Below are positions 12,391 to 50,889 of a stretch of 64,000 bases of DNA, piece by piece. The translations under genes were made by a program, and so were the position numbers. This DNA is from Candidatus Spongiisociaceae bacterium (lineage in GTDB: Bacteria > Actinomycetota > Acidimicrobiia > Spongiisociales > Spongiisociaceae), in contig CBDCOH010000002.1 in the NCBI GenBank assembly GCA_965219685.1, positions 3,008,001 through 3,072,000 of the forward strand, in the 5' to 3' direction. Every line of letters starts with the position of its first letter. The first letter of the stretch is position 1. Under the pieces are notes generated by a model. It saw only the letters and a program-made list of their open reading frames with translations, did not search any database and had not been told where the DNA came from.

Positions 12391-12682
12391 ACCCGCCCGA
12401 GCGTTGTCCCCGACCACGCTCACACAGGACTCTCCCGCCGAAACCACCACAACCCGACGCCCAGTGAAGTCCGTTACGTCGTCGTCTTGCAGCGATCGTT
12501 ATCACTACAGCGGATGGACGGTTCGTTACCCGATCACGAGGGCTTGGGCTGGAATCCTCACTCTGCGCGAAACCACTCGTCCCGGGCGGAGTTTACCCCT
12601 GCCTCTTCGGACTGGTGGTCCACCAAACCGGGTCAACCTCAAACCCGAGTTTGGCGGGTTGGATGAACCGCCCCGGATGCTC

Positions 12683-13915
12683 CTATGTTTTGCAAATCGG
12701 TTTTGTGGTCGGGTCGGTGAGCCATTTCTGGTATCGGGTGGCGAGCTGGTGGTTGTGGTGGAGGCCTCGTTCGAGGAGCGAGAGGAGGGTGGGGTGGACC
12801 TGGAGGTGTTCGGCGGCGTCGGTGAGGGTTAGTCGGGTTTGGTGACGTTGGAGGCGGAGGTCGTTGCCGTCGGGTGTTGCGGACGGTTTGGTTAGTAGGT
12901 GGTAGATCTCGCGTGCGATGTGCCGTTTCAGGCAGCGGATGATCTCGCGGCGAGTTTTGCCTTCGGCTTTGCGTCTGCGGGTGTATTCGATGGTGCGGGG
13001 GTCGGTGCGCATCCGGTTGGTGGCGATTCGCCAGAGAGCGTTGTTGGCTTGGCGGTCGCCGCCTCGGTTGAGCCGATGCCGAACTATCTGTCCCGATGAT
13101 GCTTGGACGGGGCTGAGGGCGCATAGTGCCGCGAAGGACCGTTCCGATTTCATGCGTTGGGGGTTGTCGCCGGCGGCGACTAGGAGTGCTGCAGCGCTGT
13201 GGGGGCCCACTCCGGAGGCGGCTAGGAGCGCCGGGTTGGCCTTGGCGCAGAGACGGCGGATCTCGGTGTCGAGTTCGGCTATTTCTGTGTCGAGGGTCCG
13301 GTATCGGCGGGCCAGGTGCCGCAGCGCCTTTTTCGCGTACGCGGTGGTGGTCTGCGCTTCGCCGGGACGCCAGCGGACACAGATTCTGACCATCGCTTGG
13401 ATACTGGAGCCCCGGAGCCGATGTTTGACCTGCTCAGGGGCGGTTGTGAGGAGGGCGTGGATCTGGTTGGCGGCCTGGATGCGTGCTTTGACCGCTGAAC
13501 GGCGAGCCATCCGAAGCATTCTTATCCCTTCTACGGGTCCGTCCCCGCCTTTGGGTCGCCCGGTGGCATCTCCGCTGAGGGCAGCTCGGGCTGCGGCCTC
13601 GGCGTCGACGGTGTCGGTCTTGCCCCTGAGACGACGCAGCTGGCGGTTGGGACGCATGACCTCCACCACCTCGATGTCGGCTCGGGTCAGATAACGAGCC
13701 AGGCCGGCGCCGTAACTACCGCATCCTTCCACACCGACCTGAACCGGCTGCCCCCAGGAGCGAAGCCACTCCTCCAGCTGCGCGTATCCCGCCGCATCAG
13801 CCCTGAACTGCGCCGACCCCAGTAGGCGACCCGTGTGATCCAGCACCGCTCCAACGTGGACATCCCGATGGGTATCAACCCCTCCATACACATCGACCTG
13901 GTCTTGTTCCGGCAT
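12683..13915 (-). CDS. IS110 recombinase with C-terminal XRE-like HTH
   Basis: GGVDTH, VGVEG, KTDTVDAEAAA (DEDD); ASSG catalytic serine; GGDRQAN; HTH-like tail. Confidence 0.92.
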   Translation of the reverse strand: MPEQDQVDVYGGVDTHRDVHVGAVLDHTGRLLGSAQFRADAAGYAQLEEWLRSWGQPVQVGVEGCGSYGAGLARYLTRADIEVVEVMRPNRQLRRLRGKTDTVDAEAAARAALSGDATGRPKGGDGPVEGIRMLRMARRSAVKARIQAANQIHALLTTAPEQVKHRLRGSSIQAMVRICVRWRPGEAQTTTAYAKKALRHLARRYRTLDTEIAELDTEIRRLCAKANPALLAASGVGPHSAAALLVAAGDNPQRMKSERSFAALCALSPVQASSGQIVRHRLNRGGDRQANNALWRIATNRMRTDPRTIEYTRRRKAEGKTRREIIRCLKRHIAREIYHLLTKPSATPDGNDLRLQRHQTRLTLTDAAEHLQVHPTLLSLLERGLHHNHQLATRYQKWLTDPTTKPICKT

Positions 13916-13929
13916 GCGCTCTGCCTCCC

Positions 13930-14155
13930 CTCTCCTTGTGTCGGAATAGGCTTGTGCGGCAGCGCCGGTCCGAAGCGGGTGGACAAAACACTCAGGGTGT
14001 GGGGAAGAAACGACCAAAGCTCCTATGAGGTCACATCCGCTCCGGGCTGGCTGCCCGTACCCCCCGACCGGTGCCCGGCCGACAGATCCGGGGTAAGGCA
14101 CCACAGCCAGTTTCCCGGTGGGTCAGACCAGGCCCCGGTCGAGGTCCCCTTAAGT
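13930..14155 (-). ncRNA. Putative bridge RNA of IS110-A (boundaries approximate)
   Basis: Guide-like segments CCGGGAAAC and ACCCCGG match the target flanks; CATAGGAGC and TGAGTG match the element's own ends. Confidence 0.75.
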
Positions 14156-14183
14156 ATGAGTGTTTCTCCGGAGACTCGATTAG

Positions 14184-14525
14184 TTGGGAGATAATGGAGT
14201 TATGGGTAGACCGATCATGTATTCGCCGGAGGTTCGGGAGCGGGCTGTCCGGTTGGTGTTGGAGCATCGGGGGGAGCACCGTTCGGAGTGGGCGGCGATC
14301 TGTTCGATTGCTGAGAAGTTCGGCTGTGCGTCTGAGACGTTGCGGCTGTGGGTGCGCCGAGCTGAGCGAGATCAGGGCCTGGGGTCTGGGTTGAGTTCCG
14401 ATGAGCGTACCGAGTTGCGGGAGTTGCGCCGGGAGGTTCGTGAGTTGCGGCGGGCGAATGAGATCTTGCGGAAGGCGTCTGCGTATTTCGCGCAGGCGGA
14501 GCTCGACCGCCGACCCCGCAGATGA
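14184..14525 (+). CDS. IS3 transposase OrfA
   Basis: [11 protein letters not shown]...[21 protein letters not shown]. Confidence 0.9.
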
Positions 14526-49182: not shown

Positions 49183-49224
49183 GAGGTGATCTCCTCTCCT
49201 GAGGCTTCGCGAAAACACTCATAC

Positions 49225-49430
49225 TTGTAGGGTCCTCCTCGGCTGGGGGCCGGGTCTGACCCACGCGAAAACTGGCGTTTGGTGCCTTTCCCACGATCTG
49301 TCGACCTGGCCCTAGCCGGGAGCCCTGAACCGGGGAGCGGGGTGACCTTATAGGAGCTTCGACTTCTCCACCTTGAGTGTTCTGTCCGCCGCTCTGTCCG
49401 GCTCAGGGGGACTTGGAATTGTAGGCAGTT
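49225..49430 (+). ncRNA. Putative bridge RNA of IS110-D (boundaries approximate)
   Basis: CGCGAAAAC and TCCCACG match the target flanks; ATAGGAGC and TGAGTG match the element's own ends. Confidence 0.8.
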
Positions 49431-49446
49431 GGCGGAAGGTGGGCAC

Positions 49447-50682
49447 ATGGAAGAGCAAGATCGAGCCGATGGCATGGTTGTGGTCGGTGGGGTGGACACG
49501 CATCGGGATACCCATGTTGGGGCGGTGGTCGATAGCGCGGGTCGGCTGTTGGGATCGGCCCAGTTCCGGGCTGATACGGCCGGCTATGGGCAACTTGTCG
49601 CCTGGATGGAGTCGTGGGGTCGGATCAGCCGGGTCGGGGTGGAAGGGACTGGCAGCTACGGTGCCGGCTTGGCCCGTCACCTCACCGGCGCCGGTATCGA
49701 GGTGGTGGAGGTGAACCGTCCCAACCGCCAGCTACGCCGCCGGCGGGGCAAGGACGACCACACCGACGCCGAGGCAGCAGCTCGGGCAGCTCTGAATGGT
49801 GAAGCAACCGCGGTGCCCAAGTCCGGCGACGGGCCGGTCGAGTGGATACGGATGCTGACAGTGACGCGCCGCTCCGCCGTCAAGGCCCGCACCCAGGCCG
49901 CCAACCAACTCCATGCCTTGGTGGTTGGTGCCCCAGAGCCGATAAAAGACCAGGTAAAGGGCATGAAACTCAAAGGCCTGGTTAAGACTTGTGCCCGGTT
50001 CCGACCCAGCGGAGAGTCCTCCCTCAGCTACGCTAAGCAGGCTCTCCGCCGCCTGGCCCGCCGCTACCAGGTCCTCGACACCGAGATCGCAGAACTCGAT
50101 GTCGAGATCCGCCGCCTCTGCGCCAAGGCCAACCCGGCGCTCCTAGCCGCCGACGGCGTCGGCCCCGACACAGTCGCCAAGCTCCTAGTCGCAGCCGGCG
50201 ACAACCCCCAGCGCATGAAATCGGAACGATCCTTCGCTGCGCTGTGCGGTGTCAGCCCTGTGCAGGCGTCATCTGGGCGAAGGGTTCGGCATCGTCTCAG
50301 CCGAGGCGGCAACCGCCAAGCAAACAGCGCCCTGTGGCGGATCGCTACCAACCGGATGCGGACCGACCCCGCCACCCAAGAATACGTCGCCAGACGAGAG
50401 GCTGAGGGCAAAAAGCGAACCGAGATCATCCGCTGCCTCAAGCGGCACATCGCCCGAGAAACCTACCGGCTCCTCACCAACCCGCCACCAACCCCGAACT
50501 GCGCCCGGCTACGCAGCCGACGCCAACAACGCGGAATCACCGTCACCGAGGCCGCCCGAACTCTCGGAACCTACCCCAGCCGCATCTCAGCACTCGAGCT
50601 AGGCCGAGACCACAACCACCAACTCGCTACCCGATACCAGAGGTGGCTCCGAACCCACGAACCGGCCCCATCGCCGATTTGA
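49447..50682 (+). CDS. IS110 recombinase with C-terminal XRE-like HTH
   Basis: GGVDTH, VEG, KDDHTDA, ASSG; tail LRSRRQQRGITVTEAARTLG...ISALELG. Confidence 0.93.
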   Translation: MEEQDRADGMVVVGGVDTHRDTHVGAVVDSAGRLLGSAQFRADTAGYGQLVAWMESWGRISRVGVEGTGSYGAGLARHLTGAGIEVVEVNRPNRQLRRRRGKDDHTDAEAAARAALNGEATAVPKSGDGPVEWIRMLTVTRRSAVKARTQAANQLHALVVGAPEPIKDQVKGMKLKGLVKTCARFRPSGESSLSYAKQALRRLARRYQVLDTEIAELDVEIRRLCAKANPALLAADGVGPDTVAKLLVAAGDNPQRMKSERSFAALCGVSPVQASSGRRVRHRLSRGGNRQANSALWRIATNRMRTDPATQEYVARREAEGKKRTEIIRCLKRHIARETYRLLTNPPPTPNCARLRSRRQQRGITVTEAARTLGTYPSRISALELGRDHNHQLATRYQRWLRTHEPAPSPI

Positions 50683-50889
50683 CAAACATAGGAGCATCGT
50701 GGGGTAGGGCTGCTGTTGTCGGTGCGGGGGCTCATGTTACGAGAACTCCTCGGGCTGCGAAGTTGTTGGTGTTGGTGAAGCCGTGAGCGACTCGGCGTAG
50801 GACCTGGAGCAAGTTGTTGATCCCTTCGATGGGTCCGTTGGTTGCTGGTCTGCTGCGGTGGTAGGCGAGGATTCCTTCTCCCCATGCAC

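Follow-up and report, generated by a model that had tools for sequence, protein, structure and literature searches.

Candidate guide RNAs aimed at other transposons and at sibling elements in a nest of IS110-group insertion sequences from a Candidatus Spongiisociaceae bacterium

Going by the titles of the reports, some insertion sequences (ISs) use the inverted repeats of other mobile elements as landing sites: IS1383 reportedly inserts in those of IS1384, and IS4321 and IS5075 are said to insert in those of the Tn21 family. Guide reprogramming is a mechanism on record since 2024. Bridge RNAs were discovered through guide-target covariation across natural IS110s (PMC11208160). In IS621, a CT dinucleotide is common to target and donor, and handshake bases lie at positions 6-7 (PMC11208158), such handshake guides pairing only once the strands have been exchanged and being mismatched until then (PMC11208158; bioRxiv 2025.05.14.653916). 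For ISEc11 and ISXne4, 'natural reprogramming' has been shown in the seekRNA paper (PMC11187229). Here, we analyzed a stretch of 64,000 nucleotides (nt) from a Candidatus Spongiisociaceae bacterium (contig CBDCOH010000002.1, G000:C2:3008001-3072000; hereafter the window), in which five IS110-family elements (A, B, C, D, and E) lie between 12.6 and 50.7 kb. These are very probably a nest of IS110-group ISs in which a bridge-type RNA is encoded in the left end, the guides of its target loop pick the insertion site, and the crossover takes place at one C.

The elements of the window and IS621/IS622 of Escherichia coli are alike in their DEDD plus Tnp recombinase, in a long left end coding for a predicted target-loop RNA, in donor guides that correspond to the element's own ends, in handshake-type bases by the core, and in a -35 box (right end) and a -10 box (left end) that are brought together in the circle. 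Unlike in IS621, target and donor in A, B, and D share C only, with the adjacent position already handshake-like; the host comes from an actinobacterial lineage of high GC content; transposon termini, not repetitive extragenic palindromic (REP) sequences, serve as natural targets; and the transposases of A, D, and E have an extra C-terminal helix-turn-helix (a weak match). With IS1383 and IS4321/IS5075, again as their titles present them, the elements here have in common that the specific target is another mobile element's terminal inverted repeat, but the targets of the former belong to other families, while here sibling IS110 elements are hit too. ISEc11 and ISXne4 also resemble the elements here in being close relatives that carry, on one scaffold, different guide segments for different targets; they form one pair (PMC11187229), compared with at least five guide sets in one genome here and 34 left guides that differ from one another across the clade sample.

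Natural retargeting and insertion of IS110 elements into other elements' inverted repeats, the latter by title only, are already published. A preliminary description of this stretch, made from its letters alone, had in this respect overstated its novelty, as both guide covariation (PMC11208160) and natural reprogramming (PMC11187229) were in print. The parts that are seemingly new are sibling donor-recognition DNA as a target (of B, C, and F, the last a separate IS110 family outside the window) and the one-base core. Neither guides aimed at sibling right ends or bridge-RNA DNA nor a clade in which a one-base core is the usual condition was found in the literature searched, with the limit that the supplementary target tables of Durrant et al. 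may list actinobacterial elements, cores, and targets.

The transposases of A, B, C, and D carry PF01548 and PF02371 (Pfam), that is, the N-terminal DEDD RuvC-like domain and the C-terminal Tnp domain of IS110-group recombinases. The layout of the ends is likewise that of the IS110 group, with a long non-coding left end (246 nt in A and 230 nt in D), a short right end (in D, 16 nt past the stop codon), and no long terminal inverted repeats. The features of the IS1111 group (subterminal inverted repeats of 7-17 bp and a guide RNA in a long right end) are not those found here, because the right end measures only 16-23 nt and it is the left end that contains the scaffold. The elements, their predicted RNA segments, and their targets, in window positions (positions on the contig are prefixed C2), are as follows:

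12676 to 14162, minus strand: element A, an intact IS of the IS110 group; core C at 14162, left end beginning at 14161, coding sequence 13915-12683 (410 amino acids, aa)
14081 to 14124, minus strand: target-binding loop of A; left guide CCGGGAAAC at 14118-14110, right guide ACCCCGG at 14094-14088, then AT
13987 to 14026, minus strand: donor guides of A; ATAGGAGC at 14026-14019, equal to its own right end, and GAGTGTT at 13993-13987
49216 to 50698, plus strand: element D, an intact IS of the IS110 group; core C at 49216, coding sequence 49447-50682 (411 aa), right end at 50698
49258 to 49302, plus strand: target-binding loop of D; left guide CGCGAAAAC at 49264-49272, right guide TCCCACG at 49289-49295
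49350 to 49381, plus strand: donor guides of D; ATAGGAGC at 49350-49357 and GAGTGTT at 49375-49381
39771 to 44579, minus strand: element B, dead; left end starting at 44578 and interrupted by C, N-terminal part of the transposase at 42961-41954, where the IS4-like element interrupts it
44497 to 44540, minus strand: target-binding loop of B; left guide TTGACAAAC at 44534-44526, right guide TTCTATG at 44510-44504
43032 to 44411, plus strand: element C, intact diverged IS110; coding sequence 43288-44361 (357 aa), left guide 43097-43105, right guide 43121-43127
44580 to about 45530, minus strand: element E, an IS110 sibling truncated at its 5' end, 77% identical to D; right end split by B
40057 to 42002, minus strand: IS4-like element (DDE_Tnp_1) in the B transposase gene; inverted repeats CCCGAGTTTGGCGGG, 5-bp duplication
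12664 to 15473, plus strand: IS3-family element split by A; left inverted repeat from 12664, right inverted repeat to 15473
49201 to 50890, minus strand: ISL3 remnant split by D; outer part of the inverted repeat, GAGGCTTCGCGAAAAC, at 49201-49216, inner part and transposase end at 50699-50887

A scan of the window for the first half of the left-end scaffold, GACCCA-N9-TGGC, gave exact matches at 14106-14124 (minus), 44522-44540 (minus), and 49258-49276 (plus). By itself and with one mismatch allowed, this half was not above chance in the window (7 found, 8.09 expected). The second half, GCCTT-N7-AYCTGTC, had three exact matches that adjoined the same three places, against 0.56 expected, and 2 of 100 shuffles reached three. 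Each scaffold pair lies upstream of an IS110 transposase gene, those of A, B, and D, and C could be aligned in the same register in a diverged form (GACCCG-AGAACACTC-TGAC ... GTCTT-TACCGTG-ATGCGTC, 43091-43134). The variable segments between these constant blocks read as the flanks of the respective element. In D, all nine positions of the 9-nt segment CGCGAAAAC agree with the left flank, and the reverse complement of the 7-nt segment agrees with the core plus right flank at six of seven. The corresponding left and right values were 7/9 and 6/7 in A, 8/9 and 6/7 in B, and 9/9 and 5/7 in C. The single left mismatch of B reflects the native AACC right-end type of E, which is found in relatives too; a mutation at the left junction of B was considered for it and rejected, since the relatives share that type. 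The donor guides, ATAGGAGC and GAGTGTT, are constant in A, B, and D, the former being the element's right end (...CATAGGAGCATC) and the latter the reverse complement of the start of the left end.

In the arrangement that we propose, the long left end of each element would encode a bridge-type RNA in which a stem-loop with a variable internal loop selects the insertion site. Its 9-nt left guide would read as the left flank plus C, and its right guide of 6-7 nt would be complementary to C plus the right flank, while a second, conserved pair of segments would match the element's own right and left ends as donor. The insertions would be RNA-guided and specific for site and orientation, and probably took place in the order A into IS3, D into ISL3, and B into E, and later C and, separately, the IS4-like element into B.

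All readable guides in the window point at the termini of other ISs or at sibling IS110 DNA. A, whose last letters (...GGAGCATC) finish at 12676, is inserted 12 nt inside the left inverted repeat of the IS3 element, which begins TGAACCGCCCCG at 12664-12675; the remainder of that element includes an ALIL frameshift RNA (14480-14596) and orfB (14532-15443, rve). D is inserted about 16 nt inside the terminal inverted repeat of the ISL3 remnant, of which 50738-50887 represents the end of an ISL3 transposase gene (its last 50 codons, with 94% identity to an intact copy at 29414-30607); the intact ISL3 element at 29307-30657 has the same type of repeat at both ends. B is inserted in the right end of E, between the TTGACA box and ATAGGAGCATC, so that the final 11 nt of E lie at 39760-39770, beyond the right end of B (...GGAGCGTC, last base 39771). 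C is inserted in the donor loop of B, exactly at its GAGTGTT guide, with a TC overlap at 43030-31 and 44410-11. The preliminary description had named these four targets, the scaffold common to A, B, and D with its diverged version in C, and the constancy of the donor guides, and all were recovered here; it had, however, ended B at about 41954, whereas B runs to 39771, with the C-terminal part of its transposase at about 40055-39790 on the far side of a second insertion, the IS4-like element. An orphan copy of the inverted repeat of the IS4-like element was also seen at 12644-12658, 5 nt before the left end of the IS3 element; therefore, IS3 itself apparently landed in or beside another element's terminus, and the nest appears to be at least three layers deep at the IS3 locus too.

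A pattern scan of species-representative genomes yielded 80 loci with transposase relatives, mostly from Acidimicrobiia metagenome-assembled genomes, several of them labelled as sponge associates, and some from other Actinomycetota. The scaffold was sought in these as a regular expression rather than with a covariance model, by which diverged members are missed, and was present in 53 of the 80. The host genome and the 80 loci together provided 55 non-duplicate instances with 34 distinct left guides. The left guide recurred with at most one mismatch within 140 nt upstream in 39/55 cognate but 56/2656 non-cognate comparisons, and these matches abut the start of the left end. With the same tolerance, the right guide matched the six bases after the core at the right end in 25/50 cognate versus 6/2268 non-cognate comparisons. 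The covariation of the bracketed segments with insertion sites, put forward for the window alone in the preliminary description, hence extends to the larger set. The stems enclosing the target loop covary as well: 95% of cells were paired, compared with 38-49% in slid controls, and compensatory changes occurred in 9 of 16 target-loop pairs versus 3.5 in shuffles (0/500 shuffles reached the observed value). The target stem-loop was recovered by RNAalifold from a 30-sequence alignment. Production of the RNA might start from a promoter assembled in the circular form, as the right end of D joined to its left end places TTGACA and CATACT 17 nt apart, an arrangement that resembles the IS621 junction promoter (PMC11208160).

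Among the relatives, transposases were directly beside the element at 18 of 43 loci, often of the ISL3 type (a lower bound, obtained with a seven-protein panel). At one locus (L013, OZ219922.1:1559089-1563321), the left-guide DNA in the target loop of a sibling copy is followed directly by an inserted relative; the left flank of this relative is the sibling left end up to the guide, its right flank is unrelated, and the insertion may be a one-sided ('half-match') event.

Family F comprises five copies of about 1.49 kb with about 83% identity, a 406-aa transposase with PF01548 and PF02371, and a CT(A) overlap (C2:3132877-3134357, L089; C2:3088161-3089648; C2:3082039-3083517, L090; C2:130166-131655, L091; C2:2495987-2497476), with its own left-end scaffold and the same guide logic. 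The copy at C2:3132877 has guides that equal an A-type right end in reverse complement, and it is itself inserted in such a right end. In two copies, the guides match the ATAGGAGC donor-guide DNA (reverse complement), and these copies are located in or next to it in two other siblings; two further copies have a third guide set and other targets. Given B in a right end, C in a donor loop, and these hits by F, three lineages are therefore aimed at sibling IS110 donor-recognition sequences. Insertion through a donor 'half-match' (bioRxiv 2026.08.31.748434) was considered for the sibling hits of B, C, and F and rejected, because their own target guides match the sites.

The host genome was also scanned for the 14-nt sites that the guides specify. 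Four perfect, unoccupied 14-mers were found for the D guide, all in the ISL3-type repeat. A first strict search for empty A sites found none in the host genome, and a pattern scan then found them, including an intact A-type IS3 repeat at C2:3159440. The B guide matched best (13/14) at D_win, D2, and another sibling, each time in the right end, and the C guide matched at 13/14 in four donor loops (those of D_win, D2, D3, and a further element) and at 12/14 in the A copies. The guide of a left-end remnant, X2 (C2:101269), matched at 13/14 at six ISL3 transposase ends. Further A-type copies (C2:217367, C2:4233034, C2:3130013, and C2:3094818) are all in IS3-type repeats, further D-type copies are at C2:1190928 (D2) and C2:3093133, and a second copy of C, 99% identical, occupies the same position in the A-type element at C2:3130013.

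The guides aim at IS termini and at conserved donor-recognition DNA of siblings, probably because such DNA is the part of the genome that is repeated, dispensable, and horizontally travelling, and the inactivation of the element hit would be a consequence, not necessarily the purpose. An alternative is adaptive conflict, in which guides have been selected to disable competitors by cutting IS3 and ISL3 inverted repeats and by destroying the donor recognition of siblings, both at the right end with its -35 box and in donor-guide DNA, a form of RNA-guided hyperparasitism. This fits the fact that every hit falls in a functionally essential terminus, and that three separate lineages hit sibling DNA (B a right end, C the donor right-guide DNA twice, and F an A-type right end and donor left-guide DNA). 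In addition, the own ends of the sibling-targeting elements differ from their guides, which precludes self-hits, but the non-self right end of B is common to its relative L010 and would be a trait of the lineage, not evolved immunity. Repeated, dispensable sequence is, moreover, the expected set of survivors for any site-specific IS, and efficient attack is disfavoured by the matching sites that stand unoccupied, namely the four perfect D sites and those of the C guide in D_win, D2, D3, and the A copies. No effect on fitness or copy number can be measured from this sequence, and we regard selection for conflict as unlikely; survival in repeated, harmless sites explains the data equally well. 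Of the earlier interpretation, the natural retargeting series is borne out by covariation in the larger set, while the 'conflict network' among ISs is not, as survival in repeated, dispensable sites fits equally. A guild in sponge-associated Acidimicrobiia, with guides diversified against transposons and kin, at least three lineages (B, C, and F) directed against sibling right-end or donor-guide DNA, and one fixed crossover base, is conceivable, and we put it forward tentatively.

The joining of target and donor at a single shared C is the other part of our proposal. Judged by the empty A and D sites, the element is added with a single base, C, that target and donor have in common; the core dinucleotide is not identical in target and donor of A, B, and D, which have C only. 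The junctions across the clade bear this out, in keeping with what the preliminary description reported for these three elements; C itself differs in having a 2-nt TC overlap. A two-base overlap is kept in C (TC) and in the F family (CT). Position 8 of the left guide was A in 27, T in 12, C in 5, and G in 6 of 50 cases, and thereby differed from the donor T in 38/50. At 39 informative insertions, position 8 of the left junction followed the guide in 36, was T in two, and was another base in one. The right ends were ATC in 44 and GTC in three cases, the other 3/50 being right-end calls that were false or disrupted; the two bases that follow the right guide on its 3' side were complementary to the element's own right end in 47/47. 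The T or C in A(T/C)CTGTC, earlier taken as a free choice within the scaffold, tracks the right end, and B carries ACCTGTC because its right end is GTC. The donor right guide, in turn, tracked the base before CACTC at the left junction in 34/37 cases (0/10000 shuffles).

The position beside the one-base core would thus behave like a handshake base, mismatched before strand exchange and paired after it, and the AT after the right guide of A would be a handshake-like pair. Relative to published handshake guides, the behaviour in the A/B/D clade appears shifted to directly beside the core. The base 5' of C would stay with its own left-hand partner, and the opposite loop would read that base only after the exchange; retention by the left partner fits a transfer of the top strand that decides the product, and top-strand-only transfer would yield exactly the junction pattern observed. 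In the copy-and-paste top-strand models for CazIS110-1 and IS621 (bioRxiv 2025.10.25.684509; 2026.08.31.748434), each junction inherits from its own left partner the base that lies 5' of the cut, as here; those models rest on experiments with other elements, whereas the support here is natural junction composition.

It is also possible to read the core as an NC dinucleotide, as in IS621, with a tolerated mismatch at the first base and exchange of both strands, so that its one-base appearance reflects relaxed pairing. C and the relatives with TC guides (9 or 10 nt) do show a clean two-base TC overlap, and the first core base of IS621 is less conserved, with AT, GT, and TT cores also working (PMC11208158, PMC11208160). 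A two-base stagger with unlike first bases would, however, leave a heteroduplex, from which about half of the descendants would be expected to have T on the left and the target base on the right. Such mixed junctions amounted to T at 2/39 left junctions and the target base at 0/47 right ends, which makes relaxed pairing improbable in our estimation, somewhat more so than selection for conflict.

Several observations weigh against guide-directed insertion at a single C as a general account. The scaffold as written in the regular expression was absent from 27 of the 80 related loci, and 16 of the 55 cognate left guides had two or more mismatches. The sequences compared are related and non-independent, so the shuffle controls overstate significance, and one of the 36 position-8 rows (A4) was aligned off the junction and is to be discounted. 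RNAalifold did not recover the donor stem-loop from the 30-sequence alignment; the donor-guide matches are present and covary with the element ends, the enclosing fold being the part not recovered. A look for RNA runs with the sequence of 48900-51000 found none. The left ends had no Rfam match at the gathering score, with only three ALIL hits, all of them to IS3 elements, although Rfam 15 may hold no bridge-RNA model. At one locus (L025, CBDCBK010000010.1), the guides AACTCAACC and CGAGCCA do not match the flanks, which are the target of the ACTGAAATC guide class, and this suggests a change of guide or an exchange of left ends after insertion. Lastly, the site of D2 (C2:1190928-1192410; L005) agrees with the D2 guide only if a one-base slip is allowed on the left, and at 4/6 on the right; the site is not visibly an IS or a transposon terminus, and D2 looks like a natural off-target insertion. 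Chance resemblance or an assembly artefact, for which one might cite the repeat density of the region and a first scaffold half that alone does not exceed chance at one mismatch, is barely credible, considering the non-cognate controls, the same scaffold and logic in independent genomes, contigs from public runs that cover the junction regions, and a unitig of C (43025-44412, at raised depth) that ends at the predicted boundaries of C. Logan contigs from four runs of one sample confirmed the repeat boundaries over 39000-51200; over the same region they revealed no joints, circle junctions, or empty sites, and are uninformative on activity.

Bridge recombinases are under development as genome-writing tools, and published designs need a matching core dinucleotide. 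That 38/50 sampled guides aim at sites unlike the donor at the first core position suggests that the constraint can be one base, and a one-base core, if true, would widen the sequence space for engineered bridge recombinases. The clade supplies many scaffold-identical guide variants, a ready-made specificity series, and its natural junction composition is independent evidence on exchange of one versus both strands. With regard to ecology, site-specific elements would multiply in transposon-rich symbiont genomes inside other transposons, their own relatives included, which, if true, would amount to RNA-guided parasitism of RNA-guided parasites.

The transposases of A, D, and E are extended by about 60 aa at the C terminus, where they weakly match XRE-type helix-turn-helix domains (HTH_3 and HTH_31; E-values of about 1e-4 to 1e-5); the extensions, located at 12683-12900, 50480-50682, and 44587-44780, respectively, are absent from C and F. 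Between the transposons (24002-27834 and 36507-39146) are genes for a C-5 cytosine methylase, a HATPase_c_3 protein with a weak match to Shedu SduA_C, and an NB-ARC/TPR protein, a neighbourhood that may be a defence-island context. Two 241-aa open reading frames without a Pfam match were present at 46274-46999 and 48493-49218. The 1.65 kb at 47552-49200 formed a unitig of its own at about 1.7 times the neighbouring depth, and is thus a repeat that adjoins the D target. Finally, two large RCC1-repeat proteins with S-layer homology domains (9934-12390 and 32214-33935) flank the transposon nests.

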